From an uncultured Candidatus Saccharibacteria bacterium (GTDB lineage Bacteria; Patescibacteriota; Saccharimonadia; Saccharimonadales; JAGQNJ01): a stretch of 64,000 nucleotides of DNA. The number at the start of each line of letters is the position of its first letter. The stretch's first letter is position 1. A program made the position numbers and the translations under genes. The notes under the pieces are model-generated. The model made no database searches. It was not told where the DNA came from and worked only from the letters and a program-made list of their open reading frames with translations. Positions 539 to 62,632 of the stretch are shown here, one piece after another. The stretch lies in NCBI GenBank assembly GCA_964493895.1, contig CAZBPY010000003.1, forward strand, positions 15,176-79,175, given 5' to 3'.

Positions 539-3073
539 ATGGTTAAAAACAATCATCATTTGCACCACTGGCACGCCGAGCAGCCTAGTTTTGTGTTGAA
601 ATCTTTTGACACCAGTACCGAGGGTCTATCTTCAGCTAAGGCCAAGCAGCGGTTAAAACGCTTTGGTCTAAACGTTTTAACCACCGAAAAAACCTCCTGG
701 CTGAAACGTCTCGTCGAGCCTTTCACTAGCTTGTTTGTGATTATTATGGTGGTGGCCTTGGTAATTAGCCTGGTGATGCAGGAACCTACTGATGCCTTGG
801 TAATTAGTGCTGTTTTGATTGTCAACGCTTTGATTTACTACTTCCAGCAGTACTCGGTCGGCCGAGTGCTGGCGTCCTTAAAGAGTCAGGAAGCTGGTAC
901 GGTTAGCGTTATGCGCGACGGCAAAAGACTTGAGATTAAGGCCCGCGGAATTGTACCTGGTGATATTGTCTATCTGTTCGAGGGGTTGAAGGTACCGGCA
1001 GACGGTCGAGTTATTGAAGCCAGCAATCTAGACGTTGATGAGTCAATATTAACTGGCGAGTCTTTGCCGGTCAGTAAATCTATTGATAGTTTGCCAGAAA
1101 AAACTGAAATTGGAGATCAAAAGAACATGGTCTTTAAGGGCACGTTGGTTTATAAGGGCAGTGGCTTGTTTGTGGTAACGGCCACCGCCAATAATACCCA
1201 GTTGGGAACAATCAGCCGTCTAGCCAGTCAAAGCGATATTGGTCGAACCCCAATCGAACGCAAAATTGATGAAATCACCAAAAAAATAGTCTACGGCGTA
1301 GGGGTAATAGCGGTTATCGTTTTTGGCCTGGGCCTGCTGCGTGGCATCGGCTTGGCCGAGGCCATTCGCTTTACCCTCTCCCTAGTTGTCTCGGTAGTTC
1401 CCGAGGGCTTACCAGTTACTCTAACTGTAGTTCTGTTATTAAGCGCCAAACGGATGGCCCGCCACAAGGCTCTGGTCAAGCGTCTGGCCAGCATTGAAAC
1501 TATGGGGGCCATCACCTTGATTGCTACCGACAAAACCGGTACTCTGACTCAGAACAAACTTGATGTAGCGGCGGTTCATCCGGACAAAACCAGTGTAGCT
1601 CACGCCGCCGCGGCCAGCATTACCACTGAAAACGGTATAACCCTTGATCCGCTGGATAATTTGTTGGACAAAGCTTTCGGCAATTTCGTTAAGCCGGGGC
1701 GGCGGCTGGACGATTTTCCCTTTGATCAAAAATTGCGGATGAGCGGTGCCGTTTGGCAGACCAAGAGCGGCAAAATTACCTTTGTTAAGGGTGCTCCTGA
1801 AGTTATGATCAGCAGCCTGTCGGCAGCCGAAAGGCGTAAGATCATGCAGGTTCTAGACGACTATACCTCGCGCGGCTTTCGAACAATTGCCTTCGGTCAT
1901 CTATCTAGCGGTGTCAAGCAGCTTTCCGATGTTTCTAAACACAAGCTAAAGTTTGATGGACTGGTGGCTTTGGCTGATCCGCTGCGGCCTAATATTCCAT
2001 CGGCTATTGCCGAGGCTCGAGCAGCCGGCATCAAAGTAGTAATGTTAACCGGTGACCACAAAAATACCGCCGAAGAAATTGCTCGGCAAGCCGGACTGGT
2101 TACAAATTCAGACCAGGTAGCTGATAGTAGAATGCTGGAAAAGCCGCCCAATCGTCATCTTATGAAAACAGTTCTATCACGGATCCATGTCTTTGGCCGC
2201 GTCCTGCCGCAACACAAGTTTAACTTTCTTAAAAGCGTCAAGGACACTGAGGTTACGGCTATGACCGGAGACGGTGTTAATGATATCCCAGCCCTGGTAG
2301 AAGCCGACGCCGGTCTATCAATGGGTAGCGGTACCGACGCGGCCAAAGACGCCAGCGATATTGTTCTGTTAGACGACAATTTTGGCACCATCATTAACGC
2401 TGTCAAGCAAGGCCGAGCCGTGATTGCTAACATCCAAAAGATGCTATTCTATCTTATCTCAACTAGTCTCGGTGAAGCTGGAACCATGATTGGCGCCCTG
2501 CTGACCGGCTTGCCGCTGCCGGTAACTGCCGTACAAATTCTGTGGATCAACCTAGTGACCGATACTTTTACAGTGTTGCCGATTGGCATCTCCAAGCCCG
2601 AGCGCTACCAGATGAAGCAGCCGCCGCGAAGTCCTCACAGACCGTTGTTATCACGGCCAATGTTGTCACGCACCATCTGGACTGGCCTGCTGACCGCGGC
2701 GGCCACGCTTTTCGTATTCCATCGTTTGCTACCCAAAGGCTATGACTATGCCCAGACGGCGGCCTTCACAGCCATTGTGGTGGCCCAATGGGCCAATGCC
2801 CTGAACGCTGCTTTCGACCGCTATAGTTGGCTATATTTCTTCCTGCGACCAAACTTCCTGCTGTTAGGCGGAATTGTAATTTCAATCGGCCTGCAGGCTT
2901 TGGTCGTCTATGGTCCGCTGCAATCAGCCTTCGGCATCGTGCCGCTGTCGTCATCAGATCTCATGCTGACGGTGTTTGTACCGGCCGCCACGGTTCTGCT
3001 TGGCGTCGACCTGCACAAGCTAATTTTCCGCCGCTCGGATTTACCCCCTGAAAGGGCCGCCCAAACACCTTAG
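539..3073 (+). CDS. Cation-transporting P-type ATPase (P2-type, Ca2+/Mg2+-like)
   Basis: TGES actuator motif, DKTGTLT phosphorylation site and TGDGVNDIPAL hinge motif; ten-helix membrane architecture. Confidence 0.9.
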   Translation: MVKNNHHLHHWHAEQPSFVLKSFDTSTEGLSSAKAKQRLKRFGLNVLTTEKTSWLKRLVEPFTSLFVIIMVVALVISLVMQEPTDALVISAVLIVNALIYYFQQYSVGRVLASLKSQEAGTVSVMRDGKRLEIKARGIVPGDIVYLFEGLKVPADGRVIEASNLDVDESILTGESLPVSKSIDSLPEKTEIGDQKNMVFKGTLVYKGSGLFVVTATANNTQLGTISRLASQSDIGRTPIERKIDEITKKIVYGVGVIAVIVFGLGLLRGIGLAEAIRFTLSLVVSVVPEGLPVTLTVVLLLSAKRMARHKALVKRLASIETMGAITLIATDKTGTLTQNKLDVAAVHPDKTSVAHAAAASITTENGITLDPLDNLLDKAFGNFVKPGRRLDDFPFDQKLRMSGAVWQTKSGKITFVKGAPEVMISSLSAAERRKIMQVLDDYTSRGFRTIAFGHLSSGVKQLSDVSKHKLKFDGLVALADPLRPNIPSAIAEARAAGIKVVMLTGDHKNTAEEIARQAGLVTNSDQVADSRMLEKPPNRHLMKTVLSRIHVFGRVLPQHKFNFLKSVKDTEVTAMTGDGVNDIPALVEADAGLSMGSGTDAAKDASDIVLLDDNFGTIINAVKQGRAVIANIQKMLFYLISTSLGEAGTMIGALLTGLPLPVTAVQILWINLVTDTFTVLPIGISKPERYQMKQPPRSPHRPLLSRPMLSRTIWTGLLTAAATLFVFHRLLPKGYDYAQTAAFTAIVVAQWANALNAAFDRYSWLYFFLRPNFLLLGGIVISIGLQALVVYGPLQSAFGIVPLSSSDLMLTVFVPAATVLLGVDLHKLIFRRSDLPPERAAQTP

Positions 3074-3109
3074 GTTTTGCGATATACCTTAAAAGATATA
3101 TTGCAAAAC
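3074..3109. repeat. AT-rich palindromic repeat element, copy 1 (core GATATACCTTAAAAGATATATT)
   Basis: 36-bp imperfect palindrome starting 1 nt after the ATPase stop and lying between convergent genes. One of four copies of a conserved 22-mer. Confidence 0.6.
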
Positions 3110-3149
3110 AACCATCATCCAGACCAGGCATTGGCAAACGGCCGGACAC

Positions 3150-3467
3150 TTACCGCCGCGGCCAAATAACCGCCGCGGTAATTGACCCTAGAGGAATCGG
3201 GCCAAAGTCTCGGCTGTCGGTACTCATTGGCCGGTTGTCGCCCGAAACAATAAAACCGTCACCGTCTGTGTCGACAATTCGTTTGATTTTCTCTAGCCCG
3301 TGGTGACTAAATACCACGATCTGACCGGGACGATAATGCCGCCGGGGCACAGCCAAAATCAGACGTCCCGGCCTTAAGGTCGGCTGCATGCTGTCGCCAA
3401 CCACTCGGCGGACTAAAAACCTAGGCCGCCTTTTTGGTTTCGTGGAAGATCTTGGCGATCTCATCAA
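3150..3467 (-). CDS. sodX: Small S26 family (signal peptidase I-like) peptidase, candidate NiSOD maturation protease SodX
   Basis: GDSMQPTL (box B) and GDNRxxSxDSR (box E) motifs. There is no N-terminal TM segment and the product is only about 105 aa. It lies immediately downstream of sodN. The annotated start overlaps sodN by 47 nt, so the true start is probably internal. Confidence 0.6.
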   Translation of the reverse strand: MMRSPRSSTKPKRRPRFLVRRVVGDSMQPTLRPGRLILAVPRRHYRPGQIVVFSHHGLEKIKRIVDTDGDGFIVSGDNRPMSTDSRDFGPIPLGSITAAVIWPRR

Positions 3468-3804
3468 TCATGTCCAGCAATTTCTGACCCTCAGCCGGAT
3501 CAACAGACTTCTTGCAGTCACCGGCTTGCTTGGTAGCTTGCCAAAACTTATCATGCAAATCTGGATACTTTTCTAAATGCGGCGGCTTGAAATAATCTGT
3601 CCATAGTACCCATAAGTGATGCTTTACCAGTTCAGCTCGCTGTTCTTTGATAAAAATAGCCCGGATTTTATCTTCCTGGTGAAGGTCGGAACTGTATTTT
3701 TTCATAATCTCATGAACCGATTCAGCTTCGATACGAGCCTGAGCCGGATCATATACTCCGCATGGTAAATCACAATGTGCATAAACTGGCTTGATCAAAC
3801 TCAT
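3421..3804 (-). CDS. sodN: Nickel-containing superoxide dismutase (NiSOD) precursor
   Basis: 9-aa propeptide MSLIKPVYA followed by the Ni-hook HCDLPCGVYDPAQARIEAESV. Similarity to Streptomyces SodN runs over the full length. A GGAGGG SD sits 5 nt upstream. Confidence 0.9.
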   Translation of the reverse strand: MSLIKPVYAHCDLPCGVYDPAQARIEAESVHEIMKKYSSDLHQEDKIRAIFIKEQRAELVKHHLWVLWTDYFKPPHLEKYPDLHDKFWQATKQAGDCKKSVDPAEGQKLLDMIDEIAKIFHETKKAA

Positions 3805-5294: not shown

Positions 5295-6860
5295 ATGCGT
5301 AGCTTAAAAATGGCGGTAGGTTTTTTTATTGCTGCAGTGATATTATTTGCTCCAGCATTGGGTTCGGTGTCTTCGGCTCAAGCTTCGTCTGATTATGAAG
5401 ACAGTGAGTGTTATTTGGGCAACGTTCCTGCTTTTGATGCACGCGACCAGATTCGACCAGGCAGCTATGCTATCTATGCTAAATTGGCTCGCCGTGGACA
5501 ATTAGCACCTGTGACTCTTTATATTGAGGACAATGGAGCTTCTGCTTGCCAGCTAGTCGGTTCAATTGAAGCAAATGGCGAGACCTGGCAGAGGGTAGGC
5601 ACTTGGGATTCAATCGATGATGCGCCGGTTCGGTTTCAACTGAGTTCGCCGGCTTTTACTTATGAACTTGACGCTAACCGCCCATCGATAATGTTACTTC
5701 CGCTGACTAGTCCGCCCTGCCAGCCGGTTGTTAATTGTGAACTTGAGTACGAGGGTCAGCCTGCATACCTTGTGCCGACTAGTACTTTACTAAGCGAAAA
5801 TCAATTGCGGGTACAACAAGTCAAAGATCTACAATCAGATCGTTTGGTGCAGGTTGGGTATTTTTCTGATGGTCAATTACTTTACACCACGCCTAAGTTA
5901 GAGCCGTTTGACCTGCGGTATGTCCGTGGCGGTGATCACGACCTATCCAGGGTGCTGCAATTTGAGTCCGGGCAGAGGGTGGTTTTACCTTCCACTGCCA
6001 GGATTAGCTTTGCCAGAGATTTTCAAAATCTGTTATTCCGCCTTTTTCACAGCAATCGCATCGGCTTGCAAATTCTAGCCACCTTAATCATCTTGTCTCT
6101 AGTGGCCATGATTACTCTGGCCGCTATTCGCACCCTACATCGGCGACGTATTTGGAAGCTTAGTCATGGTTTATTGAGGCCGTCGCCTTCTAAACTGCAG
6201 CCACAGCAACAGCTGCCGGCCAATTATGTTCCGCCGGCCCATAAATTCATAGCTGAGGATTCGGCCCTGATAAAGCGAGTTAAACAGTTCATGCCTTATG
6301 TTTTTGCGGCGATTTGCATCGTTGTGGCCATTGGCGTAATTGACACTTATGTGGGTCAGCTATTTAAGGTTGATGGGCCAAGCATGGAAAACACTCTTCA
6401 GACCGATGATTTGATCTATGTTAACCGACTACCAAAAACCTGGGCCACTATCAATGGCGGTGAATTCGTGCCTAAACGCGGGCAAGTTGTCGTCTTCCAA
6501 AAGGCCCATAGCGAACTGTTTATTCAGGAAAGTCAGGGCGAAGAAAATACATATGTTGTCAAGCGAGTTTTGGGACTGCCTGGTGAGCGAGTACTGATCA
6601 AAAACGGTAAAATCACTATTTTTAACCGCGATCATCCTGGCGGCTTCAACCCTGATGATAACAGTGACTGGCAGGCAACATATATCGTTGACCCGAACGA
6701 GAATATTGACTTAACCCTAAATCAAAGCGAGATCTTTGTCACTGGCGACAATCGTCCAGAATCACTAGACTCTCGAACCAACGGACCGATTAATATCAAT
6801 GAGCTGATTGGAGTGGCCGAAGCCCGCCTATTGCCGTTTAGCAAACGCCAAACGCTTTAG
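5295..6860 (+). CDS. lepB: Signal peptidase I (S26A) with a long N-terminal extracytoplasmic extension
   Basis: C-terminal domain carries GPSMENTL (catalytic Ser), KRVLGLPGERV and GDNRPESLDSR boxes. N-terminal hydrophobic segment, a domain of about 230 aa, two TM helices, then the catalytic domain. Confidence 0.75.
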   Translation: MRSLKMAVGFFIAAVILFAPALGSVSSAQASSDYEDSECYLGNVPAFDARDQIRPGSYAIYAKLARRGQLAPVTLYIEDNGASACQLVGSIEANGETWQRVGTWDSIDDAPVRFQLSSPAFTYELDANRPSIMLLPLTSPPCQPVVNCELEYEGQPAYLVPTSTLLSENQLRVQQVKDLQSDRLVQVGYFSDGQLLYTTPKLEPFDLRYVRGGDHDLSRVLQFESGQRVVLPSTARISFARDFQNLLFRLFHSNRIGLQILATLIILSLVAMITLAAIRTLHRRRIWKLSHGLLRPSPSKLQPQQQLPANYVPPAHKFIAEDSALIKRVKQFMPYVFAAICIVVAIGVIDTYVGQLFKVDGPSMENTLQTDDLIYVNRLPKTWATINGGEFVPKRGQVVVFQKAHSELFIQESQGEENTYVVKRVLGLPGERVLIKNGKITIFNRDHPGGFNPDDNSDWQATYIVDPNENIDLTLNQSEIFVTGDNRPESLDSRTNGPININELIGVAEARLLPFSKRQTL

Positions 6861-9547: not shown

Positions 9548-10060
9548 CTATTTCTTAAGCCCTATTTTCTTCTGTCTAATTTTCTTGAGTCCCAGCAAAA
9601 TAATCTTGCCAATATCATCATACTCTATTTTATCAAGCGCTTCTCTAGCTGGGAACCATTTTATATCATTCATCCAGTCTTCTTTGACTAGTTTCTGGTC
9701 AGCCGGATCAGCGTGAACCAGATAAATGTCCTGGGTGATCAACACTAAGCTGTTTTGCCGGCGATACTGGAAATTGATTTTCCCCAGCCAATCGTACATG
9801 GTGACCTTTTTCAGGCCGGTTTCTTCTTTAACTTCGCGTTCGGCGGTCTGTTTGGGTGTTTCTCCTTCTTCCATGTGACCTTTGGGAATTGTCCAGCGGT
9901 CACGAGCATCCTGAATTAGCAAGATGTCTATCTCGTCAGTACCCGGCCGGCGTCGAAAAATGACACCACCGGCGGTTGGTTCACGCAGGACCTCTTTGAT
10001 AGCCGGGCTGCGGCGCTGAGCAAACTTGCGAAACCGGTCAATTGGCTTTGGTCTTTTCAT
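9548..10060 (-). CDS. NUDIX hydrolase
   Basis: Perfect Nudix box [23 protein letters not shown]. Confidence 0.8.
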
Positions 10061-10490
10061 TCTTTTCCTTCTGTTGTCTGAGCAGTGACCCTAACACTCC
10101 ATTGATGAATTTTGAAGAGTTATCGCCGCCAAAGGCTTTGGCCAGCTCCACCGCTTCATTGATCACCACCTTGTCAGGAGTGTCCGTCTCGTAAAGAAGC
10201 TCGTAAGCTCCTATTCGAAGAACCAGGCGGTCCATCCGGGCAATCTGGTCCAGAGGCCACTCCGGCGCCAACGGCTGTAACACCTTATCAATATCAGATA
10301 CATGGGAATCCACACCTTTGACTAGCTGACGGACAAAAGCGGTGTCTTTCAGGGTCTTGTGATAGCGCTGGATATTTTTCTTGGTCACCTGGTCAAGATC
10401 AAAAGCCTTATCACCACTTGTGGTTCGAAACTCTTGCTCGAACAAGGTTTGCAGTGCGACGATGCGACCAAGATGCCTGTTTGCGCTCAT
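10038..10490 (-). CDS. nusB: Transcription antitermination factor NusB
   Basis: NusB fold motifs ([23 protein letters not shown]). Confidence 0.8.
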
Positions 10491-10818: not shown

Positions 10819-13728
10819 CTAGCCAACTACGATGTTGAGAATCTTGTCCGGCACGTAAATGACCTTTTTAATGTCTTTGCCGGCAAGGTGCTTACTGACT
10901 TTTTTGTCATTTTTAGCCGCCTCTTCGGCAACCGCCTGATCGCTGCCAGCCGGAAGTTCCAATTGAGCCCGGACTTTACCGTTAATTTGCACCACCACTG
11001 TCACCACGTCGCTAACAAGATATTTCTCGTCCCACTTGGGCCAGTGGCCAACATGAACTGAATCCTCATGGCCTAGCTGGTGCCACAACTCTTCGGCAAT
11101 AAACGGGGCAAACGGAGCCGCGCACATAACGGTTTTTTCCAGACAATCGCGCCAGACTTTGGACTTAGCAATTCCAGCCTCGCCCTTCAGTTTGTAAAAG
11201 TCATTAACCACTGTCATCAGAGCCGAAATTGCCGTGTTATAGCGTTGTTCGTTAATGTCGTCAGTGACCTTATGAATCATTTTGTTTGTAGCTACCAGAA
11301 GCTGCTTCTCTAGGTCTCGGTCAACTTCTTTCTCGAGGGCATCATTAAATTCTTGGACAAGATTCCACAACCGCGACAGAAATCGGAATGTACCCGGCAC
11401 ACCCTGGGGGTCCCAATTGGTACCCAGCTCTAATGGTGCAGCAAACATCAGGTAGGTGCGTAAAGCGTCAGCCCCATACCCTTGATCGATGATCTCTAGC
11501 GGATCAGCCCCGATACCCTTTGATTTGGAAAATGCGCTGCCATCACTAGCTGTAACTTTGCCATTAAACAGGAATTTCTTGAAGGGCTCGGGATCATTAA
11601 TCAAGCCTCGCTTATGGAAAAAACGGGTTACAAACCGAGCATACAACATATGGGCCGTGGCGTGATCAGCTCCATTATAGAAATCCAGGGGCATCCATTT
11701 GTTGACGCGTTTAATGTCGAAGGCTTGTTTGTCATTGTGCGGATCAAAGTAACGCAGCATGTACCAGCTACTGCAAATATAGGTATCTAGGGTATCGGTT
11801 TCTCGTTCAGCCGGGCCGCCGCATTTTGGACATTTAACTTTCAGCCAGTCCTTAGCCCTTGCCAAGGCGCTGCGTCCATCACCGCTCGGCTTGAAATCAG
11901 TCAATTCAGGCAATATAACTGGCAGGTCTTCATCAGGCACCAACACCGGTCCGTCTTTCGGGCAGTTGATAATTGGGATAGGTGCCCCCCAGTATCTTTG
12001 GCGAGATACGCTCCAGTCACGCATCCGATAGTTAGTTACCGATTTAGCTACGCCCTTTAGTTCCAAATCAGACACAATTTTTTCTCTCGCCTCGGAGGCT
12101 TCCATACCGTCATACTCACCAGAATTTATTAATTCACCCTCTCCTTCAATCGATGTGGTTTCTTGTAGCAAGCTCCAGATCATCTTCTGATTGCTTGGCG
12201 TCAAACGATTCATCACCTCAGATTCATCGACCCACACTAAAGAATGTAACTTCTGTTCCCCTTCGTCAATTTTTTCTTGTTGGTCTAAGTTCTCGACAGT
12301 CGCTAATAACCCGTGGCTAATGCTTTTTCGATTCTGATTTTTATGTGAAGCATTGTAGCGAGCGCTAGTAACCCAAGGAGATTGCTTGATAATTTTGACA
12401 TGTTTAAGGCCGGCTTCTTCTTCAATTTCCATGCGTGCCGCATCCTCAGGCGTTTGGCCCTCCTCGATACCTCCCATGATGGCTGTGGTTATTCCTTCCA
12501 GTGTTCCATGCCAATCTAAAATTGCATACTTCCCAGTTGACTCATCACGCAGATGAACAACAACTGTCTGTCTTTCAACCTCTTCTAGACCTGGGGCTGG
12601 TGGATTTGAAGCATCAGGCGCACTTGGCATGACAACTTGTCGCATTGGCAGATCATATTTCTGAGCGAATTCGAAGTCGCGTTCGTCGTGGGCCGGGACG
12701 GCCATAATTGCGCCAGTTCCGTAACTGAGCAAGACATAATCAGCAATCCAGATAGGAATTTTTTCCTGATTGGCCGGATTGATAGCGTAGGCGCCGGTGA
12801 ACACGCCGGTCTTTTCTTTGGCTGCTTGCCTCTCCACTTCGGTTTTCTTAGCCGTGGACTTGATGTAGTCGTCAACTTCTTTTCTGCGCTCATCCGTTGT
12901 AATCTTGGCAACGATGTCGTGTTCGGGGGCGACAACCATAAAGGTAGCTCCAAACAGGGTGTCCGGCCGGGTGGTAAAGACGGTCAAGATCTCGTCGTGG
13001 CCATCGATCTTAAAGTCAATTTCGGCACCCTGGCTACGTCCAATCCAATTCTTCTGAGCCAGCTTGACGCTTTCTGTCCAATCCAGATCGTCAATAGCCT
13101 CTAGCAGCTCGTCGGCGTAATCCGTGATTTTGAAAAACCACTGCTTGACCTCTTTCTTCTCGACCAGCGGATCATCCGGCCCATCATGCCGCCAACATTT
13201 GCCGTCAATAACCTGCTCATTAGCCAACACCGTCTGGCACTTGGTACACCACCACTGCATCCGAGCATCCTGATAAGCCAGCCCGGCTCGATACATTTCA
13301 GAAAAGATCCATTGTGTCCATTTGTAGTAATCCGGTTGGTGGGTAGCAATTTCTTTGGACCAGTCATTGCTCCAGCCCATGGCCTTATACTGTTTGTGAT
13401 AATTCGGAATAATCTGAGCCATTGATTCTTGCGGCGAAATCCCAGCTTTGATGGCGTAATTCTCAGCCGGCAGACCAAAGCTATCCCAGCCCACCGGGTG
13501 ATAACTTTCATAACCCTGCTGCCTCTTGAACCGAGCCAGTACGTCGCTGATGGTGTAGTTCATGGCGTGGCCGATATGAATGCCAGCCCCGCTGGGGTAA
13601 TTGAACATGCTCATAGCAATAAACTTCGGCCTATCCGAATCTAGATCAGCCTTATAAGTTTGATGTTCATCCCAGTATTTCTGCCACTTCGGTTCAATGG
13701 CTTTTGGATCATAGCGTTTCATCGCCAT
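10819..13728 (-). CDS. leuS: Leucine--tRNA ligase carrying a Nudix-like domain insertion of about 150 aa; the true start is probably the second ATG at 13722
   Basis: HIGH motif (HIGHAMNYT), FGLPAEN, the editing-domain end motif AVPAHDERDFEFA, RDWSVSRQRYWG and FSKSKG (KMSKS) are all present. Residues about 369-530 are an extra domain not present in E. coli LeuRS. Confidence 0.9.
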   Translation of the reverse strand: MAMKRYDPKAIEPKWQKYWDEHQTYKADLDSDRPKFIAMSMFNYPSGAGIHIGHAMNYTISDVLARFKRQQGYESYHPVGWDSFGLPAENYAIKAGISPQESMAQIIPNYHKQYKAMGWSNDWSKEIATHQPDYYKWTQWIFSEMYRAGLAYQDARMQWWCTKCQTVLANEQVIDGKCWRHDGPDDPLVEKKEVKQWFFKITDYADELLEAIDDLDWTESVKLAQKNWIGRSQGAEIDFKIDGHDEILTVFTTRPDTLFGATFMVVAPEHDIVAKITTDERRKEVDDYIKSTAKKTEVERQAAKEKTGVFTGAYAINPANQEKIPIWIADYVLLSYGTGAIMAVPAHDERDFEFAQKYDLPMRQVVMPSAPDASNPPAPGLEEVERQTVVVHLRDESTGKYAILDWHGTLEGITTAIMGGIEEGQTPEDAARMEIEEEAGLKHVKIIKQSPWVTSARYNASHKNQNRKSISHGLLATVENLDQQEKIDEGEQKLHSLVWVDESEVMNRLTPSNQKMIWSLLQETTSIEGEGELINSGEYDGMEASEAREKIVSDLELKGVAKSVTNYRMRDWSVSRQRYWGAPIPIINCPKDGPVLVPDEDLPVILPELTDFKPSGDGRSALARAKDWLKVKCPKCGGPAERETDTLDTYICSSWYMLRYFDPHNDKQAFDIKRVNKWMPLDFYNGADHATAHMLYARFVTRFFHKRGLINDPEPFKKFLFNGKVTASDGSAFSKSKGIGADPLEIIDQGYGADALRTYLMFAAPLELGTNWDPQGVPGTFRFLSRLWNLVQEFNDALEKEVDRDLEKQLLVATNKMIHKVTDDINEQRYNTAISALMTVVNDFYKLKGEAGIAKSKVWRDCLEKTVMCAAPFAPFIAEELWHQLGHEDSVHVGHWPKWDEKYLVSDVVTVVVQINGKVRAQLELPAGSDQAVAEEAAKNDKKVSKHLAGKDIKKVIYVPDKILNIVVG

Positions 13729-21770: not shown

Positions 21771-21857
21771 TGGTGCGCGGGGCGGGACTCGAACCCGCAC
21801 GCCCAGTTGGGCATTTGATTTTAAGTCAAACTTGGCTACCAGTTACAACACCCGCGC
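21771..21857 (-). tRNA. tRNA-Leu (anticodon TAA), long variable arm
   Basis: 87 nt. Acceptor gcgcggg/cccgcgc, anticodon loop cuUAAaa, encoded CCA. Confidence 0.85.
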
Positions 21858-22349
21858 TCTCTGTAATCTTAACGCAACTTTCTTATTTTTGCCACGGTGT
21901 GTTGGTTGCAGACTGTGACAATTGGGACATAATATTCTTAGGTTTACTAACCTATTGTCTGTGGGATCACCATTGATGTGATCTAATTCCACTGGGATTC
22001 TACCGTCTATACTTCTTTCTGCCCATCCACAAATTTCACATTTTGGATTTTTTAATCCATCTTTGTAGAGACGGAGCTTTAGGGTATGGCTTTGGACTTT
22101 GCTGCCTTTTCGAAGCCACTTTTTTGTAGGTGTAATAGGAAGATTAAATTTATACAATCCGCCCTTGTTCCAGCCTCGACCGGTAAAATGATGGGTTGAG
22201 AGTTTTAGTTCAGCAACTCGTTCGGAAACTTGTTTATAGTTGCCGCCTGCCGGAATAAGGCCAATCTTTTTTATTACGGCTCGGTAACTAGTGCAAGTAG
22301 CCACCGCTTTCACTAATTGCTCGTCCGTCCAGCTGCGTTGCTTCGGCAT
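21843..22349 (-). CDS. HNH endonuclease (homing-endonuclease-like) with an N-terminal HTH-like region
   Basis: ELDHINGDPTDNRLVNLRILCPNCHS HNH/zinc motif. The 3' end overlaps the 5' end of tRNA-Leu(TAA) by about 15 nt. Confidence 0.75.
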   Translation of the reverse strand: MPKQRSWTDEQLVKAVATCTSYRAVIKKIGLIPAGGNYKQVSERVAELKLSTHHFTGRGWNKGGLYKFNLPITPTKKWLRKGSKVQSHTLKLRLYKDGLKNPKCEICGWAERSIDGRIPVELDHINGDPTDNRLVNLRILCPNCHSLQPTHRGKNKKVALRLQRARVL

Positions 22350-29236: not shown

Positions 29237-30444
29237 CAGAGAAGCGGGGGCAAATTCTTGCTAAGCAAGCGGCTACCGTTTTTGGTTACCAGGATGTCGT
29301 CCTCAATGCGAACGCCAATATTCTCTTCGGGGATGATGATGCCCGGCTCGACTGCCAGCACCATGTTTTCGGCAAACTCGGTGTGATAATCACCAATGTC
29401 ATGGGTGTCCAGGCCTAGGTAGTGCGAGGTGGCGTGAGGGAAATACTTACGAATGGCTTTTCGAGACCGGACTTTAATCAGACCCAACTTTTTGAGCTCG
29501 TCACCAACAAACTTTTCAACCATTTTTTCGTATTCGCGGAAAGCCACGCCCGGCTTTATCAGACTGATGGCATAATCATGAGCCCTCAGACAGGCCTGTA
29601 AAACGGCTTGTTGTCTTTTGGTAGCTCTGCCCACCGGCAAAGTCCGGCTAATATCGGCGGCGTAATTATTAACCTCGGCGCCGGTGTCGATTAACAGCAG
29701 CTGGTTTTTGTAAATTTTGCCGCCATTGGCAAAACTATGAACCAGGGTTGCTTCGGGGCCGCTGGCTACTATGGTCTGAAAGGCATTGCCACGGGCACCC
29801 ATACGAACATACTCGTAATCCAGCCAAGCCACAGCTTCATAGGAGTATTCAATTTTCGGCAATCGACGAATTAGTGACTTAATAGCTGTTTCGGTTATCT
29901 CAATTGCCCGCTGTATTTCGGCAATCTCCTCTGGTTGTTTGATCATTCTCAGCTGCACAAAGGCTTCTCGCACATCGCGGGTTTTGAGGCCGGGATTGGT
30001 ACGGCGCAGACGTTCTTTAAGGTGGCGCCGAGCCGGATTGCTGTAAAAATCATAAAACCTGACAAACCGGGCCAGCGGCTCTAGGATCATCACCTCACGA
30101 ATATCTTTCAGTTTTTGGTTAAGCGGCGGCCAACCCTGAGCCTCGGTCAGAACTGATTTAATTCCAGAGGTTTTCTTTAGTTGCTCAACATCAATGCGAC
30201 CATCAAAGATGTTGCGAATCTCATCACGTGGCGGCAGGATCAGATATTCCCGCTCATCGTCCATTACCAGAATAATGTCCGGTTCGTCAATGCCGGTTAG
30301 GTACCAAAAATTGCTGTCCTGGCGAAAAGGATAAGTCGTATCGCCGGTGCGTTGCATCAGCCCGTTTGCGGTAATGATAATTAGTCCGGAGCCCACCGCC
30401 TCACGTAACTTGCGCCGGTTATTTACAAAAAACGAAGCTTTCAT
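29236..30444 (-). CDS. Xaa-Pro aminopeptidase (M24B family)
   Basis: Pita-bread fold metal-ligand motifs (HATSHYLGLDTHD, VLAVEPG). Confidence 0.8.
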   Translation of the reverse strand: MKASFFVNNRRKLREAVGSGLIIITANGLMQRTGDTTYPFRQDSNFWYLTGIDEPDIILVMDDEREYLILPPRDEIRNIFDGRIDVEQLKKTSGIKSVLTEAQGWPPLNQKLKDIREVMILEPLARFVRFYDFYSNPARRHLKERLRRTNPGLKTRDVREAFVQLRMIKQPEEIAEIQRAIEITETAIKSLIRRLPKIEYSYEAVAWLDYEYVRMGARGNAFQTIVASGPEATLVHSFANGGKIYKNQLLLIDTGAEVNNYAADISRTLPVGRATKRQQAVLQACLRAHDYAISLIKPGVAFREYEKMVEKFVGDELKKLGLIKVRSRKAIRKYFPHATSHYLGLDTHDIGDYHTEFAENMVLAVEPGIIIPEENIGVRIEDDILVTKNGSRLLSKNLPPLL

Positions 30445-31910
30445 GTTTTTGACTTCTTCTGCGCCCGGATGTACTGCTTTAGTATAGCGGCTTTTTTGAC
30501 TCCGACAACCTTTTCTAGTTCGCCGCTCCGAGCTTCCATAATACGTTTCATAGATCCAAAATGCCGCAGCAATTTTTGGCGACTGATCGGTCCGATGGTT
30601 GGAATGTCGTCCAGGAAACTGGCGGTTTGGCGCTGGCGCTTTAAAACCGTGTGGTAACTGACTGCAAATCTATGTGATTCGTCGCGGATTCTCTGCAGCA
30701 GCTTAACTATGTGTGACGACTTCGGCAACAACTGCATTTGAAAGCCATTATCGGTTTTTATAACGATTTCTTCCTCGCGTTTGGCCAATCCAATCATCGG
30801 AATATGCGAATAGCCGGCCTTATCTCTTGCCGCCAAAGCCGCACTGAGTTGCCCTTTGCCGCCATCAATCAAAAATAGATCTGGCAGCTTCCATTGCTTG
30901 ACATTTTTAGGACTAAGCCGGCGTATAATGGCTTCATTCATGTGAGCAAAGTCGTCGTTGCCAGGAATACGCATCTTGAATTTTCGGTACTCGGCCTTGT
31001 TAGGCAAGCCATTGGTGAAAACTACCATGCTAGCGGTGGTATCGGTGCCGCTCATGTGTGAAATGTCATAGCCCTCGATACGGCGCGGCGGCGCGGCTAG
31101 CCCCAAGAGATCGGCCAATCCGGCCAGGCCTTCGTCTTTACTGAGATCCATAAACTCGCGGTCACTAAACACGATCTGTCGAGTCAACCCCTTCAGAGCA
31201 AACAACTGCTTTTTCAGCCGCGCCGCCTCCTCGAACTGCTTAGCCTTAGCGGCTGCCATCATGTCACGTTCGACCTGGCTGATCAGAACCTTTCGCTCAC
31301 CCTTAAAGTACTGCATCAGCTTTCGTAAGTTTGCCCGGTAGTCTTTAACGTCGGTTTTACCTTCCTCCAAACCAGGGCACAGGCCCAGATGATACTGCAA
31401 ACAGGCTCGCTTTGGCACAACACCAGTGTGAGTCGAAAAAGGAAAAGCTCGCCGAAGATACTGTAAGGCTTTTTTAATGCTAAAAACATTAAAATACGGC
31501 CCAAAATACTTGGCTCCGTCATCCAGTGGCCGCCGGGTTATAGTCACTGTCGGATGCTCAGAGTTGTAATCGACCCGGATATAGCCGCTGCTTTTGTCAT
31601 CGCGCAGCAGAATGTTGTATCGTGGCTGGTAGCGCCGGACCAACTCGGCCTCCAAAAATAGGGCATCGAGTTCGGTTTCAACCGTAATCCAATCCAGGTC
31701 AGCAATCTCAGCTACCAGGGCTTCGGTCTTTGGATCCGGTGCCCGGCCCTTTTGAAAATACTGCCGCACCCGATTACGCAACCGGGCCGCTTTACCAACA
31801 TAAATAATTTTGCCGGACTTATTTTTGTACAAGTACACGCCCGGTTCCATCGGCAGGTCCTTTAGTCGGTCAGTATTAAACTTCTGATTCATGTTGAGCT
31901 CTTTTGGCAA
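30441..31910 (-). CDS. uvrC: Excinuclease ABC subunit C; likely true start is ATG 31892 (MNQKFNTDRL...)
   Basis: GIY-YIG domain (GVYLYKNKSGKIIYVGKA), UvrC RNase H-like domain and C-terminal HhH. Confidence 0.85.
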   Translation of the reverse strand: MPKELNMNQKFNTDRLKDLPMEPGVYLYKNKSGKIIYVGKAARLRNRVRQYFQKGRAPDPKTEALVAEIADLDWITVETELDALFLEAELVRRYQPRYNILLRDDKSSGYIRVDYNSEHPTVTITRRPLDDGAKYFGPYFNVFSIKKALQYLRRAFPFSTHTGVVPKRACLQYHLGLCPGLEEGKTDVKDYRANLRKLMQYFKGERKVLISQVERDMMAAAKAKQFEEAARLKKQLFALKGLTRQIVFSDREFMDLSKDEGLAGLADLLGLAAPPRRIEGYDISHMSGTDTTASMVVFTNGLPNKAEYRKFKMRIPGNDDFAHMNEAIIRRLSPKNVKQWKLPDLFLIDGGKGQLSAALAARDKAGYSHIPMIGLAKREEEIVIKTDNGFQMQLLPKSSHIVKLLQRIRDESHRFAVSYHTVLKRQRQTASFLDDIPTIGPISRQKLLRHFGSMKRIMEARSGELEKVVGVKKAAILKQYIRAQKKSKT

Positions 31911-31930
31911 TATACCTTAAAAGATATATT
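31909..31930. repeat. AT-rich palindromic repeat element, copy 2 (AATATACCTTAAAAGATATATT)
   Basis: Abuts the trhO stop codon and lies 16 nt upstream of the uvrC ATG. Confidence 0.6.
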
Positions 31931-34875: not shown

Positions 34876-36676
34876 CCGCACTGATGCCATAAAAAGAAAC
34901 ATCCAGCTAATTGTACGGATGTTGGGAACAGGTTTTAAGTTGCGTCCAGCTGGGGTGATTCTCTATTTCGCTGGAGCAATATTGGAGATTGGAGCATTCA
35001 TTGGCTCGGTTTATGCAACAGCTCGACTTGGTGCCTTGCTGGCTGCTTTCATTACTAGCGGTAATACCGAGGGCATTTGGTTCTGGCTGTGGGTTGATAT
35101 TGTCGCCGCCTTAATAATCGCTCTTGGCCACTTTGTTATGGGATACGCCAAGCGATTGATGTACTTCGCTTTTGTTCGCTGGTCGACCAATAGTTACCTG
35201 GCCGCGCTATCTCGACTAGATATTGAAGATTTTTACGATGAAGAACGTCGAAACTTAATCAACAAAGTCGGTAGCGCCTATAGCTGGCAAATTCCTAACT
35301 TGATGGAAATGAACCTGGACCTGATTTACGGAATTATGAGGTTCTTAGCAATCACTATGGTGGTGGCCCAAATTACGTGGTGGCTGGTTCCTTTGATCGC
35401 TCTTTTCTTGGTGCCAACTTTAATTGCCGAGAGTCGGATGGCTAAGTTGCAGTGGTTTGTCTGGGATCAAAAAGGTGATGAGCGCCATATTTTCTGGGGC
35501 CTTGATTGGATAATCAAGCGGGCTCGGGGGCAAATGGAGCTTCGTAGTACCCAGGCTACAAATTATATGCTTAACAAAATCGATAGCATGAACAATGACT
35601 TCTACTCAACTCAGGAACGAGAATTCAACAAAGCTTCGAAAATCAGCTTGCCAACCAGATTTCTAGAAGTAGTTGGAACTTCGATAGGCTCGATAGTGTT
35701 ATTAAAACAATTACTATCGCGGACGATACCACTCGATCGATATTTCTTCCTTTCAGGAGCTTTGCTGCGGGTCGGCGGTGCTTTAAATGCTATATTTATG
35801 ACCTTATCGCGCATGCAAGAATCATTGTTGTTCGCCGACAGTTATTTCAGCCTAGCGGACTTCAAGCCTAAACTAGTTGACCAGCTCAGATCGATCGACC
35901 TTCCGATCGATGGCCAAGCACCAACAATTGAATTTAGAAATGTTTACTTCACCTATCCTGGCCACAACCAGCCGGTGTTTGAAAATCTTAACCTAAAAGT
36001 TGGGGCCGGAGAGCATGTAGCATTAGTGGGCGAAAACGGAGCTGGCAAGACTACATTAATTAAGTTGTTACTACGTTTTTACAAACCAACTTCGGGTCAA
36101 ATTTTAATCAACGGACACGATTTGCAGGAGTTATCGATTGAATCTTGGTACAACCACATAGCGACTTTGTTCCAGCAATTTAACGAGTATCCCTTCCCGA
36201 TTGACGAGAATATCTATGTTGGTCGTTCGACAGCCAAACCAGATAAGAAGGCTCTGAAAGAAGCAGCTGACTTTGGTGGTGTGAGTAGTTTTGTTAAACG
36301 TTACAAGCACGGTTGGGACACAGTTTTGGACAGCAGTTTTAAAAATGGTGTTGAGCCAAGTGGCGGCCAATGGCAGCGCGTTGCTTTGGCTCGAGCCTTC
36401 TACCGCCAAGCCAGTGTTCTAATTCTAGATGAGCCAACTTCTGCCATCGATGCCCGAGCCGAGTACGATATTTTCAACAATATCTTCAAGCATTTTCAAA
36501 GCAAAACTGCCTTGATTGTCAGCCACCGTTTTAGTACCGTTCGCCGGGCTGACCGAATTATTGTAATCGACCGGGGCAAAATCATTGCCGAGGGCAGCCA
36601 TCAAGAATTAATGCACGATAAAAAGGGAATGTACTACGACCTATTCACCAAACAGGCTGAAGGCTACTTAGACTAG
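34868..36676 (+). CDS. ABC transporter ATP-binding/permease protein (second half of a probable heterodimer)
   Basis: Six TM helices, Walker A GENGAGKTT and a degenerate signature PSGGQWQR. Start overlaps the upstream gene by 8 nt. Confidence 0.8.
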   Translation: MNNRTDAIKRNIQLIVRMLGTGFKLRPAGVILYFAGAILEIGAFIGSVYATARLGALLAAFITSGNTEGIWFWLWVDIVAALIIALGHFVMGYAKRLMYFAFVRWSTNSYLAALSRLDIEDFYDEERRNLINKVGSAYSWQIPNLMEMNLDLIYGIMRFLAITMVVAQITWWLVPLIALFLVPTLIAESRMAKLQWFVWDQKGDERHIFWGLDWIIKRARGQMELRSTQATNYMLNKIDSMNNDFYSTQEREFNKASKISLPTRFLEVVGTSIGSIVLLKQLLSRTIPLDRYFFLSGALLRVGGALNAIFMTLSRMQESLLFADSYFSLADFKPKLVDQLRSIDLPIDGQAPTIEFRNVYFTYPGHNQPVFENLNLKVGAGEHVALVGENGAGKTTLIKLLLRFYKPTSGQILINGHDLQELSIESWYNHIATLFQQFNEYPFPIDENIYVGRSTAKPDKKALKEAADFGGVSSFVKRYKHGWDTVLDSSFKNGVEPSGGQWQRVALARAFYRQASVLILDEPTSAIDARAEYDIFNNIFKHFQSKTALIVSHRFSTVRRADRIIVIDRGKIIAEGSHQELMHDKKGMYYDLFTKQAEGYLD

Positions 36677-37449: not shown

Positions 37450-38103
37450 ATGTTCGACACCCAAGCTTTAATTGCCAGCGGCGGGATCCTAATCGTAGCC
37501 GCTATTGTTTTTGCCGAATCGGGACTATTGATCGGCTTTTTCCTGCCCGGTGACACTTTGCTATTTAGTGCCGGACTATTAGCCGCCCAAGACGTAGTGT
37601 CTTTGCCGTGGTTATTATTATTCACCATACTAGCCGCCATCATCGGCGACAATGTTGGCTATTCAATCGGCCGGCGCACCGGACATCGGATCTTTAAGAA
37701 AGAGGACGGAATCCTATTTCACAAAGCCCATCTGGTCCGAGCCGAAAAATTTTACCATCAACACGGCGGCAAAACTGTCACCTTGGCGCGATTTGTACCA
37801 GTGGTCCGAACTTTTGCTCCGCTGGTAGCCGGCATCGGAAAAATGCCCCGCCAGCGATTTATGTTTTATAACATCATTGGTGCCTTTCTGTGGGGCGGTG
37901 GCGTTACTTTATTAGGTTATTGGCTGGGCAGCAAAATCCCAGGGCTCGACCACTACATCGAATACATCTTAATCGGCGTGATTGTTGTCAGCCTTAGCCT
38001 GTCCTTCTTGCACGTTCTGCGTGAGCCGCGGGCTCGAAAAGCCATGGTCGCCGGCATCAAGAGTCAGCTCAGTAAAATCGCTCTAAACAAAAAGGTCGAT
38101 TAA
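37450..38103 (+). CDS. DedA family membrane protein
   Basis: GLLIGFFLPGDTLLFSAGLLAA DedA/SNARE-associated motif. Confidence 0.8.
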   Translation: MFDTQALIASGGILIVAAIVFAESGLLIGFFLPGDTLLFSAGLLAAQDVVSLPWLLLFTILAAIIGDNVGYSIGRRTGHRIFKKEDGILFHKAHLVRAEKFYHQHGGKTVTLARFVPVVRTFAPLVAGIGKMPRQRFMFYNIIGAFLWGGGVTLLGYWLGSKIPGLDHYIEYILIGVIVVSLSLSFLHVLREPRARKAMVAGIKSQLSKIALNKKVD

Positions 38104-56550: not shown

Positions 56551-56617
56551 AATGATATTCTACCACTGTTAGTTTGAGCTTGCCTGAGTCACTGAATCTA
56601 TCCGGCGGCGCTAGCCT

Positions 56618-56653
56618 CCCCGGATCGGTCCCCGGATCGGTCCCCGGACCGGT
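56618..56653. repeat. Tandem 12-bp repeat (CCCCGGATCGGT) x3 in the metG-tatD intergenic region
   Basis: Three head-to-tail copies. The third has one mismatch. Confidence 0.6.
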
Positions 56654-56661
56654 CGAATCGC

Positions 56662-56683
56662 AATATATCTTTAAAGATATATC
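56662..56683. repeat. AT-rich palindromic repeat element, copy 3 (AATATATCTTTAAAGATATATC)
   Basis: Perfect 10-bp arms. Overlaps the metG stop codon by 2 nt. Confidence 0.6.
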
Positions 56684-58148
56684 AGGTTTTAGCAGGCTTG
56701 GATGTGCTGGTAGCATCAATATCTGTTCGCGGGAACAGAGTGGTCTTCGGCGCCCGAATCACGCCTTCTTCAAAGATGTGCCGGATGCGAACAGCGGTCT
56801 CTGGCAAAAACGGCTCGAGCATCTCGGCAATTTGCAGTAAACTAGCCACTTGATAGCTCAACACCTCTTGCAGGTGGCCCTCGGTGTCGTCTTTGGCGAT
56901 TTCCCAAGGTTTTTGCTCTTCAATATACTGGTTCAGACCCCTGATACGGTTCCAAATTATCTCTAGAGCCCGGTCAAACTTACAATCAAGAATAGCTTCT
57001 TCAAACTGACCGACATCATGGCCGACATCCGGCAAAGTACCGATCAGGCCGTTTTGATAGCTCTGGATCATAGCCAGCGTTCGCTGGACGGTATTGCCCA
57101 ACTCATTGGCTAGATCGGTGTTATACACCTCGTCCAGCTTTTGCCACATAAAGTTACCATCTTCGTAACTGGGGATATAGCGCAGGAAATAATAGCGAAA
57201 AGTGTCAACACCATATTTATCAACAACGTCCTTAGGATGAATTACGTTGCCAAGCGACTTGCTCATCTTCTTTCCCTCAACATTTATGAAGCCATGGACA
57301 TAAAGAGTTTTTGGTAAGGGTAGGCCCAGCGCCAATAACATTCCCGGCCAAATCGCGGCGTGAAACCGGATGATATCCTTGCCAATAACTTGAATATCGG
57401 CCGGCCAAAACTTCTTGAAGTCAGCGTGTTCGGGATAGCCAAGCACGGTGATGTAATTCATCAAGGCCTCAAACCAAACGTACATTACCTGATTGGCGTC
57501 ACCCGGCACTGGGATTCCCCAGCTGATTTTGTCTTTCGGCCGGGAAATGCTGATGTCCTCCAGGCCTTCGTTGATAATAGCTAAAATCTCATGTTTGCGG
57601 GTGCTGGGGATAATTCGAAAACTACCTTCTTCGATGGCCTTTTTAATCTGCGGAGCGAAAGCTGACAAGCGAAAGAAATAATTTTCTTCTTCGATTTTTT
57701 CGTACGGCCGGTTGTGGTTCGGGCAAACACCGCCGTTAGCCTTGACAATTTGCTCGGTGAAAAAAGCCTCGTCACCAGTGCAGTACCACCCCTCATATTT
57801 GCCTTTGTAAATGTGCTTGGCCAGGTTCTTCCAGACAATCTGAGCTCGTTGTTCGTGCCCCTGATCCGTAGTCCGGATAAATCGGTCGTTAGAAATGTTG
57901 AGCAGCTTGGTCAGATTCTGGAAACTCTGGCTGATGCTGTCAGCATAATCTTTGGGGGTCAGTTTAGCCTCGGCGGCTTTCTCGGCGATTTTACCCCCAT
58001 GCTCGTCAGTACCAGTACTGAACAAGGTGGTCTTACCGCGCTGGCGAGCAAACCGAGCCAAAACATCAGCGTAAACCAATTCCATGCCAAAGCCAACATG
58101 CGGCTCATCATTAATATATGGAATTGCGGTCGTCACATAATAGTTCAT
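56682..58148 (-). CDS. metG: Methionine--tRNA ligase (short form)
   Basis: Class I HIGH-region variant (PHVGFGMELVYADV) and KMSKSLGN. Confidence 0.9.
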   Translation of the reverse strand: MNYYVTTAIPYINDEPHVGFGMELVYADVLARFARQRGKTTLFSTGTDEHGGKIAEKAAEAKLTPKDYADSISQSFQNLTKLLNISNDRFIRTTDQGHEQRAQIVWKNLAKHIYKGKYEGWYCTGDEAFFTEQIVKANGGVCPNHNRPYEKIEEENYFFRLSAFAPQIKKAIEEGSFRIIPSTRKHEILAIINEGLEDISISRPKDKISWGIPVPGDANQVMYVWFEALMNYITVLGYPEHADFKKFWPADIQVIGKDIIRFHAAIWPGMLLALGLPLPKTLYVHGFINVEGKKMSKSLGNVIHPKDVVDKYGVDTFRYYFLRYIPSYEDGNFMWQKLDEVYNTDLANELGNTVQRTLAMIQSYQNGLIGTLPDVGHDVGQFEEAILDCKFDRALEIIWNRIRGLNQYIEEQKPWEIAKDDTEGHLQEVLSYQVASLLQIAEMLEPFLPETAVRIRHIFEEGVIRAPKTTLFPRTDIDATSTSKPAKT

Positions 58149-58213: not shown

Positions 58214-58672
58214 TTGCTTGTTGAAGTAAAGGGGAATATAGTTGTTAATATGAATTGGGGTAAGTTTCAAGGGGAACACTCCCGTAATGCGGGGGGAGCA
58301 ATTGCAGATACAGACTTTGATGTGGTGTCCATCGGGAGAGCTATGTTGGATCATAACAATGGCTGTGGTGTCCAGGAGGGGCTGGCCTGTGCTGACTGTT
58401 GGAAATCAGCTAAAATAGTTACTGCATCACTAAGAGAAAGAGGTTATCTTGGCGACAGCCCCGGCCCATTCAGTAAAATTAGATGGCAGGTGCAATCAGA
58501 TATGAGTGGACCGTGGCACTTTGATTTAGAGGAAGATCACCCCTATGTTGTGACCTCCGTAGAAGCACTGGGGCAATTTGAAAATGCCTGGTCAGAAGAG
58601 CCAGTAGAGTTCAGTAAAGTTGCAGTGTCAGCTTTAATTCGAGCTCAACGTCTAGAAAGAATTACTCCGTAG
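58214..58672 (+). CDS. Hypothetical protein (152 aa) containing three Cys, divergent from metG
   Basis: ORF only. Purine-rich and compositionally unlike its neighbours. Could instead be part of a structured leader. Confidence 0.3.
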   Translation: MLVEVKGNIVVNMNWGKFQGEHSRNAGGAIADTDFDVVSIGRAMLDHNNGCGVQEGLACADCWKSAKIVTASLRERGYLGDSPGPFSKIRWQVQSDMSGPWHFDLEEDHPYVVTSVEALGQFENAWSEEPVEFSKVAVSALIRAQRLERITP

Positions 58673-60458: not shown

Positions 60459-60526
60459 ATGTCTCCTTTACTGGCCATATTACGCCAGCAATGACTCAAA
60501 GACAAGCACAAGCCTTTTTACGATAT

Positions 60527-60548
60527 AATATATCTTAAAAGATATATT
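60527..60548. repeat. AT-rich palindromic repeat element, copy 4 (AATATATCTTAAAAGATATATT)
   Basis: Perfect 10-2-10 palindrome, 54 nt downstream of the cytochrome b5 fusion gene and about 70 nt upstream of the lipoprotein gene. Confidence 0.6.
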
Positions 60549-60601
60549 TATGATCTGGGACTATGGTCTGGGACTGACGACCAGCCAGACCGGCCAATGA
60601 T

Positions 60602-62243: not shown

Positions 62244-62632
62244 TGGTGGAGCTGCAGGGAATTGCACCCTGGTCCGCGGGATTATTCGGTTAGTCGTCTA
62301 CAGGCTTAGTTTGTTTTCGATACTTGAAGCCGGGCCTAAAAACAAACAAAATAGCACGCGACTCGCAGTCCTAAAGTCTTAAGTTGCTTTACGGATCATA
62401 AAGCAACCGCAGCCAGAAAATATGGCACGCTCTAGGCCTATCCGGCGTCAGACTAGGCGCGGCTGTAGGCAATTAAGCTACAGCTGGTGCGAAAGCTAGA
62501 GCTTTGAACGGATTCAAAGCAGCTAGGCGTTCACTAATAGATGTTTTTGCATCTAAAAAAACTGCCTATAACGCTGACAAGCGGCCTGCGGATCTAACCA
62601 ATAAAGTCCTACGTCGAGCTAAAATCAGCCCC
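62244..62632 (-). ncRNA. ssrA: tmRNA (SsrA), 389 nt; predicted tag AKTSISERLAALNPFKALAFAPAVA
   Basis: 5' GGGGCUGAUUUUAGCUCGACGUAGGAC (compare E. coli GGGGCUGAUUCUGGAUUCGACGGGAU). tRNA-like 3' end with T-arm cagggUGCAAUUccctg, acceptor CAGCUCC-A-CCA and a G3:U Ala determinant. Resume codon GCA at RNA position 83. Tag ORF 62473..62550 ends UAA. Confidence 0.8.

Follow-up and report, generated by a model that had tools for sequence, protein, structure and literature searches.

A dispersed AT-rich palindrome at gene junctions of a Saccharibacteria genome and its likeness to toxin-antitoxin operators

REP and REPIN elements (RAYT; E. coli, Pseudomonas, and the SMAG of Stenotrophomonas) are short extragenic palindromes that occur in many near-identical copies, are specific to a lineage, and differ between relatives; they are often found inside operons and a few nucleotides from stop codons, and they have a GTAG or GTGG head, an imperfect GC-rich hairpin, and an arrangement in inverted doublets. 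REPs reportedly often lie within ~15 nt of stop codons. In Neisseria, dRS3 repeats, NIMEs, and DUS pairs are ~20-bp intergenic dyad repeats at variable junctions, sometimes after genes; dRS3 repeats, of which there are hundreds, border RS mosaic units and are prophage integration targets, and DUS also occur as single 10-12-mers inside genes. MITEs measure ~50-500 bp and are marked by terminal inverted repeats and target-site duplications, and intrinsic terminators consist of a palindrome directly downstream of a stop codon, with a G+C-rich stem base and a 3′ U-tract. To our knowledge, no short dispersed palindromic repeats have been described in CPR bacteria, Saccharibacteria included; a limited literature search for the present motif or for dispersed Saccharibacteria palindromes found nothing relevant. 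Dyads are also bound by antitoxins: HigA2 of V. cholerae binds as a dimer to a dyad that extends from just after the -35 box over the -10 box, and protects 24 bp around a 7-5-7 dyad (PMC11006873).

The window analyzed here, by which the whole 64-kb stretch of DNA is meant, comes from a metagenome-assembled genome of an uncultured member of the Saccharibacteria (TM7/CPR) and contains four copies of a 22-bp palindrome. CPR genomes are small and tightly packed, and a dispersed palindrome is unusual for such a genome. The palindrome belongs to the known general kind of short interspersed intergenic palindromes; it departs from REPs, MITEs, terminators, and uptake sequences in the features that define them, and it agrees with a toxin-antitoxin (TA) operator family in sequence only. 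The palindrome is a modest curiosity, and its putative identity as an operator is a testable lead.

Copies of the palindrome and neighboring genes

When the window was searched with AATATAYCTTWAAAGATATATT allowing up to 3 mismatches, matches were obtained only at 3081-3102, 31909-31930, 56662-56683, and 60527-60548, all four recurring on both strands because the 22-mer is palindromic, and the chance expectation for the pattern was 0.00 in 100 dinucleotide-preserving shuffles. The four near-identical copies reported in the earlier note were thereby confirmed; 20 of the 22 columns are invariant among them, and each copy is 86-95% identical to the consensus. Copy 1 (3074-3109) consists of the core GATATACCTTAAAAGATATATT at 3081-3102 with GTTTTGC and GCAAAAC on its two sides, making a 36-bp palindrome; copy 2 (31903-31930) consists of the core AATATACCTTAAAAGATATATT at 31909-31930 with the flank TTTGGC in common with copy 1; copy 3 (56662-56683) is AATATATCTTTAAAGATATATC with a perfect 20-bp palindrome inside; and copy 4 (60527-60548) is AATATATCTTAAAAGATATATT, a perfect 10-2-10 dyad as had been claimed for it. 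A relaxed search with the 14-bp centre found no further degenerate copies in the window, and a 10-bp half-site search found no lone half-sites there, exact AAGATATATT being confined to the palindromes; with one mismatch allowed, this half-site gave 4 extra matches, which equals the shuffle expectation. In a general repeat search, the palindrome was the sole dispersed repeat family in the window besides the tRNA genes.

The copies vary at position 11 (centre), at positions 1 and 22 (outermost), and at position 7 (one arm base). Copies 1 and 2 are 93% identical over 28 nt; they share an asymmetric C at position 7, an AA centre, and a flank of six further bases (TTTTGC and TTTGGC, TTTKGC), and these shared features show that the copies arose by copying, not by convergence. 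The four sites are young copies of one short dyad, AATATATC-N6-GATATATT, of 22 bp (28 bp in copies 1 and 2). The sequence surrounding the four copies does not align, and a larger mobile unit was rejected on the basis of flank-vs-flank local alignments (best p 0.02 over 48 tests), GGTCTGG not being enriched either. The would-be loop CTTWAAAG is conserved as well as the stem, the lone arm substitution is uncompensated, and the hairpins are weak; the conserved property is thus sequence rather than structure, as the earlier note had held.

The window has ~48% G+C and belongs to a compact genome, with a median intergenic gap of 29 nt, many gene overlaps, and half of its gene junctions shorter than 30 nt. 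The neighboring genes were identified by NCBIfam and Pfam. When checked against ORFs and family assignments, all four copies were intergenic, in agreement with the claim that none lies inside a gene core. At copy 1, the 36-bp palindrome immediately follows the TAG of a P-type ATPase gene (3071-3073; distance 0 nt), and the 22-mer begins 7 nt beyond that codon; copy 1 ends 40 nt (3110-3149) before the stop of the convergent sodX (3150), so that it faces a convergent sodX-sodN pair instead of a downstream gene. The last base of copy 2 is also the A of the trhO stop codon TGA (minus strand), a 1-nt overlap, and this copy ends 16 nt upstream of the uvrC ATG (31892). The metG stop codon (TGA, 56682-56684, minus strand) takes its GA from copy 3, an overlap of 2 nt, and tatD follows 111 nt downstream of this copy. 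Copy 4 is preceded by a Cyt-b5-domain gene, which stops 53 nt before it, and followed by a gene for a 160-aa lipoprotein, whose ATG is 68 nt further on. Three of the four copies touch the upstream stop codon. The earlier statement that three copies lie within 0-2 nt of a stop holds for trhO and metG, and for the ATPase gene it holds only for the 36-bp palindrome and not for the 22-mer; the statement that two copies lie 16-70 nt upstream of the next start is correct for uvrC and the lipoprotein gene.

The genes adjoining copy 1, sodN (nickel superoxide dismutase) and sodX (maturation protease) at 3150-3804 on the minus strand, may be a horizontally acquired cassette. A cyanobacterial origin of the window was rejected, since HIP1 was not enriched, though Ni-SOD genes are present. 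UvrC (30441-31892, minus strand) is short, with 483 aa vs 498-506 aa in relatives, and its matches to UvrC profiles of ~600 aa are split into two separate stretches, which suggests that a middle segment is missing.

Relatives and other genomes

Eight contigs of the closest available relatives, 114.6 kb in total, were compared with the window. No 22-mer within 5 mismatches of the consensus was found in these eight contigs, in which ~7 copies would be expected at the density of the window (Poisson P ~8e-4), and no other recurrent AT-rich palindrome was found in five of them (73.7 kb). The metG-tatD gap is 2-3 nt in three relatives, whose MetG is 82%, 77%, and 75% identical to that of the window, vs 131 nt in the window. 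In four relatives with ~86-87% TrhO identity and gene order kept over ~20 kb, trhO and uvrC overlap or are separated by 1 nt or 9 nt; their spacing is 37 nt in the window, where TrhO has an unalignable tail that is 17 residues longer than in the relatives and ends at the TGA of the palindrome. At the junction of copy 4, the lipoprotein gene is missing between the Cyt-b5 gene and trehalase in the two relatives with 77% and 75% MetG identity.

The spacers of the window, all on the minus strand, were delimited at 31893-31929 for trhO-uvrC (37 nt, nearly all copy 2, lineage-specific), at 56551-56681 for metG-tatD (131 nt, lineage-specific, comprising copy 3, a 12-nt tandem repeat at 56617-56654, and a TGGTAGAAT box), and at 60459-60601 for copy 4 (143 nt; the relatives differ in gene content at this junction). 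Each copy is accompanied by 40-110 nt of otherwise unrelated spacer DNA. Junctions of overlap or ≤9 nt have been opened into 37-143-nt spacers, each with the same dyad, which documents recent remodeling of operon boundaries in a reduced genome. Copies 2 and 3 lie at junctions of conserved gene order and are therefore not rearrangement scars. The dyad is a recent gain that was placed in formerly tight junctions of one Saccharibacteria lineage. The earlier note had offered a lineage-specific small repeat element as one possibility, and this part of it stands: the 114.6 kb of sequence from the nearest relatives lack the motif, also at the two orthologous junctions that could be compared, and no other genome in the collections scanned (see below) carries it in multiple copies.

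The TGGTAGAAT box (56551-56570, minus strand) is promoter-like and lies 6 nt before the tatD ATG as a leaderless-type extended -10; since tatD is coupled to metG by 2-3 nt in the relatives, a new promoter would have arisen in the spacer of copy 3. G+C-rich tandem repeats directly adjoin copies 3 and 4 (a 12-mer × 3.2 at 56617-56654 and a 13-mer × 2.1 at 60549-60575, respectively), possibly as a result of replication slippage beside the palindrome.

The exact core was then sought in three larger collections. It was found in 63 stretches of 185,579 species-representative genomes, all of them single matches, in 116 stretches of JGI metagenomes, and as 7 single matches in IMG/VR viral contigs. No named Saccharibacteria were among the exact-core matches of these three collections, and none of the 185,579 representative genomes had more than one exact core. 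Most of the matches are chance occurrences in AT-rich DNA. Coding coincidences were seen, namely YILKDIL in a dus-like gene and GYTLKDIL in cysS, and some matches are the tips of A-run/hairpin/T-run terminators in AT-rich Firmicutes. A ~150-bp foldback, MITE-like family in AT-rich JGI contigs (Ga03021xx/Ga03022xx, 18 contigs), with the ends TGGATTGGTTTTGG... and ...CCAAAACCAATCCA, has the centre GCCATATAYCTTWAAAGATATATGGC, which is the same 20-mer core; this match is probably a coincidence amplified by copy number.

Likeness to toxin-antitoxin operators

The flanks of every exact match were inspected, and in ~20 contigs, including Collierbacteria, Woesebacteria, Falkowbacteria, and Parcubacteria, TTGACA immediately precedes the exact 20-mer, which overlaps a TATAAT or TATATT (-10) box and has a start codon 6-17 nt downstream. 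This class of TTGACA-dyad promoters is clearly not due to chance. The genes downstream encode 94-aa HTH_3 proteins or 114-123-aa Gp49-family proteins (PF05973), and the Gp49 and HTH_3 genes constitute a HigB2/HigA2-type toxin-antitoxin pair. The minus-strand 22-mer of copy 2 is identical (22/22) to the operator-type site of Collierbacteria (two contigs), and the arm variant at position 7 also occurs in cassette promoters. The antitoxin family comprises ~246 clusters and is named only in Microgenomates-type CPR; no named Saccharibacteria were found among the 246 clusters. Two antitoxin homologues that were picked independently of the DNA pattern have AATATATC-TTTTAG-AATATATT and AATATATC-TTTTGA-GATATATT in the same place, both inside tight housekeeping junctions, and because these independently fetched homologues carry the dyad with variable centres, the putative operator of the cassette family can be written as AATATATC-N6-GATATATT with a free centre. 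The V. cholerae HigA2 dyad begins just past the -35 box and covers the -10 box, so the CPR promoter dyads have the same architecture with a different sequence. The putative genome-wide regulatory operator that the earlier note had offered as its other possibility gains some indirect support from the identical dyad in these promoters of other CPR bacteria.

Gp49/HTH_3 cassettes of Microgenomates-type CPR were located at 9603-10285 (contig L195), 9589-10285 (L197), 924-1601 (L079), and 974-1694 (L119). Such cassettes are inserted in tight housekeeping junctions, e.g., between tRNA-synthetase genes, and their internal TTGACA-dyad promoter occupies the stretch from the toxin stop to the antitoxin start, as seen for the dyad in L079 and L119.

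The dyad of the window resembles the HigB2/HigA2-type operators in 20-22 bp of identity and in the form AATATATC-N6-GATATATT, and its size and symmetry are those of dyads to which HTH_3 dimers bind. The CPR cassettes resemble copy 2 in that the dyad comes just after a stop, with the next ATG 9-16 nt further on. The operators, however, are placed between -35 and -10 boxes, whereas the window copies have neither a -35 box nor an adjacent toxin or antitoxin gene: scanning and inspection revealed no TTGACA-like -35 at the right spacing at any window copy, and tblastn detected no Gp49 or HTH_3 coding sequence in the window, beside the copies, or in the loci of the relatives. Cassette-bearing genomes gave a single exact 20-mer match each in the scans (inexact copies were checked within ±10 kb of two cassettes), whereas the window has four dispersed copies. 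AT-rich 20-bp palindromes of this kind number ~11,000, and in ~10^12 database bases the match to the operator family may be due to chance.

Candidate explanations

We tentatively favor the reading that the copies are recently copied, naked operator-like sites in duplex DNA that are bound by a dimeric HTH protein. Their functional form would be double-stranded DNA, each copy being a putative operator that is free of a -35 box and of adjacent TA genes, and the binder would be a dimeric XRE-family (HigA2-type) helix-turn-helix protein encoded elsewhere in the genome. Since each copy sits at the 3′ end of an upstream cistron, the bound dimer might act there as a roadblock or insulator, which would set the read-through into uvrC, tatD, the lipoprotein gene, or the convergent partner at copy 1. 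The evidence for an operator comes from four copies in one window and is sequence-based. The lack of an HTH_3 or Gp49 homologue in the window and in the loci of the relatives counts against it, as does the placement relative to downstream promoters, which is inconsistent, one copy lying between convergent genes. The 86-95% uniformity of the copies exceeds that of typical regulon sites and fits the recent copying of a selfish repeat equally well.

The main rival, which we consider rather unlikely though by no means negligible, is a selfish repeat of this kind, either REP-like or a miniature palindrome, which a transposase encoded elsewhere (RAYT/IS200-IS605-like or other) would copy in trans and which would lack a dedicated function. 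The position at stop codons would then merely be where a compact genome tolerates insertions, since with half of the junctions under 30 nt, few sites do so. Near-identical extragenic copies in one lineage only, present or absent by comparison with relatives, speak for this rival; the asymmetric variants and 6-nt flank shared by copies 1 and 2 indicate copying, and the position reported for REPs near stop codons is similar. On the other hand, the window copies are singletons without REPIN doublets and without a GTAG/GTGG head (only copy 2 has GTAG, 8 nt away), they are perfect AT-rich dyads and not imperfect GC-rich stem-loops, and the host is a reduced CPR genome. Their ssDNA hairpins (-0.5 to -4.4 kcal/mol in copies 2-4) are poor substrates for hairpin-dependent Y1 transposition, the similarity stops at ~28 nt with no target-site duplication (a MITE was rejected on the same grounds), each copy came with 40-110 nt of unrelated spacer, and there was no RAYT, transposase, recombinase, or XRE gene among the genes of the 64-kb window. 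An element acting at the RNA level, i.e., a hairpin that stabilizes the mRNA 3′ end, terminates, or modulates ribosome release or translational coupling, is improbable. The contact of three of the four copies with a stop codon would suit it, as would the T-to-C change of copy 2, which gives a G-U wobble on the sense (minus) strand, the location of copy 2 within a probable trhO-uvrC operon, like REPs in E. coli operons, and the hairpin of copy 1, which reaches -14.8 kcal/mol between convergent genes. The RNA hairpins of copies 2-4, however, reach only -6 to -7 kcal/mol; the fold of copy 2 cannot be told apart from those of shuffles (z = -1.4), and for copy 3, 7 of 200 shuffles were at least as good (z = -2.3). 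The stems are all A-T, except for 2 bp of G+C at the stem base of copy 1, the U-tract is absent at all copies, and the sense strand has an A-run rather than a U-run 3′ of the hairpin, copy 1 being reversed in polarity relative to a terminator (T-run 5′, A-run 3′). No intrinsic terminator or sigma-70 promoter was predicted at any copy by consensus scanning, and no Rfam match was found at the palindrome sites. An intrinsic terminator was rejected for want of a G+C-rich stem and a U-tract and in view of the weak hairpins of three copies, and a promoter role was rejected because the scan accepted no -35/-10 pair at any of the copies; the promoter-like boxes that tatD and the lipoprotein gene possess lie away from the dyad. 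The loop is as well conserved as the stem, with no compensatory change. Other convergent pairs overlap by a few nucleotides, several by 4 nt, with no terminator or hairpin (6857-6860, 36673-36676, 38100-38103, and 58662-58672), and the window has no more terminator-like sites than its shuffles, so that the genome seems to use few canonical intrinsic terminators. The suggestion of a REP-like mRNA-stability or terminator hairpin in the earlier note is thus weakened, by the marginal hairpins, the missing U-tract and predicted terminator, and the lack of REP hallmarks.

It is very improbable that the copies are relics of deleted Gp49/HTH_3 cassettes, of which an internal promoter or operator was left in the junctions. 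In other CPR such cassettes do occupy tight housekeeping junctions, where the dyad directly follows the toxin stop and is separated by 9-11 nt from the antitoxin ATG, copy 2 matches the Collierbacteria operator in full, and the 6 nt before the core (plus strand) match TTGACA at 13 of 24 positions in the four copies, in a register chosen post hoc. Against this, tblastn found no toxin or antitoxin coding trace beside any copy, no copy has an intact -35 box, and neutral decay would not remove both genes four times yet keep the 22-mer nearly perfect. Least probable of all is a chromosome-level site, such as a target of a recombinase or of integration (Neisseria dRS3, Xer/dif-type 8-6-8), a homing-endonuclease target, or a nucleoid-organizing or uptake site. 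In its 8-6-8 arrangement of arm, spacer, and arm, the dyad is similar to the core sites of tyrosine recombinases, the junction of copy 4 varies in gene content and copy 1 adjoins the Ni-SOD cassette, an ORF at 21843-22349 has a weak match to an HNH_3 endonuclease, and the copy density of ~1 per 16 kb in the window is similar to that of Noc or SlmA sites. Copies 2 and 3, however, occupy junctions at which gene order is kept in all relatives and which are therefore no rearrangement breakpoints, active recombination at direct repeats would delete essential genes, e.g., metG and alaS, and no recombinase is encoded in the window; the Neisseria repeats differ further in their half-sites and mosaic units. 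A DNA uptake sequence (DUS/USS) was rejected, since DUS occur at ~1 per kb as single-orientation 9-12-mers also inside genes, whereas AAGATATATT is exact only inside the palindromes and isolated half-sites are missing. A parS/Noc/SlmA-type site was rejected as well: the palindrome is missing from all relatives, which argues against a core chromosome-organization system, and is never multi-copy in representative genomes. Its sequence is unrelated to what we take to be the parS consensus, TGTTNCACGTGAAACA.

Should an XRE/antitoxin-type repressor indeed bind the operator-like sites, they would clearly exemplify the spread of regulatory sites by copying and would connect a toxin-antitoxin regulator with housekeeping genes. 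A more far-reaching version, which we hold to be unlikely, is that the operator of a horizontally acquired HigA2-type antitoxin or of a domesticated XRE repressor was copied to many junctions, breaking the trhO-uvrC and metG-tatD operons and putting DNA-repair and other genes under a TA autoregulatory circuit, i.e., an early stage of regulon birth by operator dispersal. If it has no role beyond its own spread, the element would be an AT-rich mobile repeat of unusually small size, shorter and less stable than the known REPs. On both readings, the 22-mer can serve as a sharp marker of the lineage in metagenomes.

Three further genes of the window, all on the minus strand, were recorded. The ORF at 21843-22349 (168 aa, HNH_3 match with E = 1.2e-5) lies among tRNA genes and may be a free-standing homing-type nuclease. 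The leucyl-tRNA synthetase gene (10819-13728) has an inserted NUDIX domain, and the tmRNA gene (62244-62632) has an unusually long predicted tag peptide, AKTSISERLAALNPFKALAFAPAVA.
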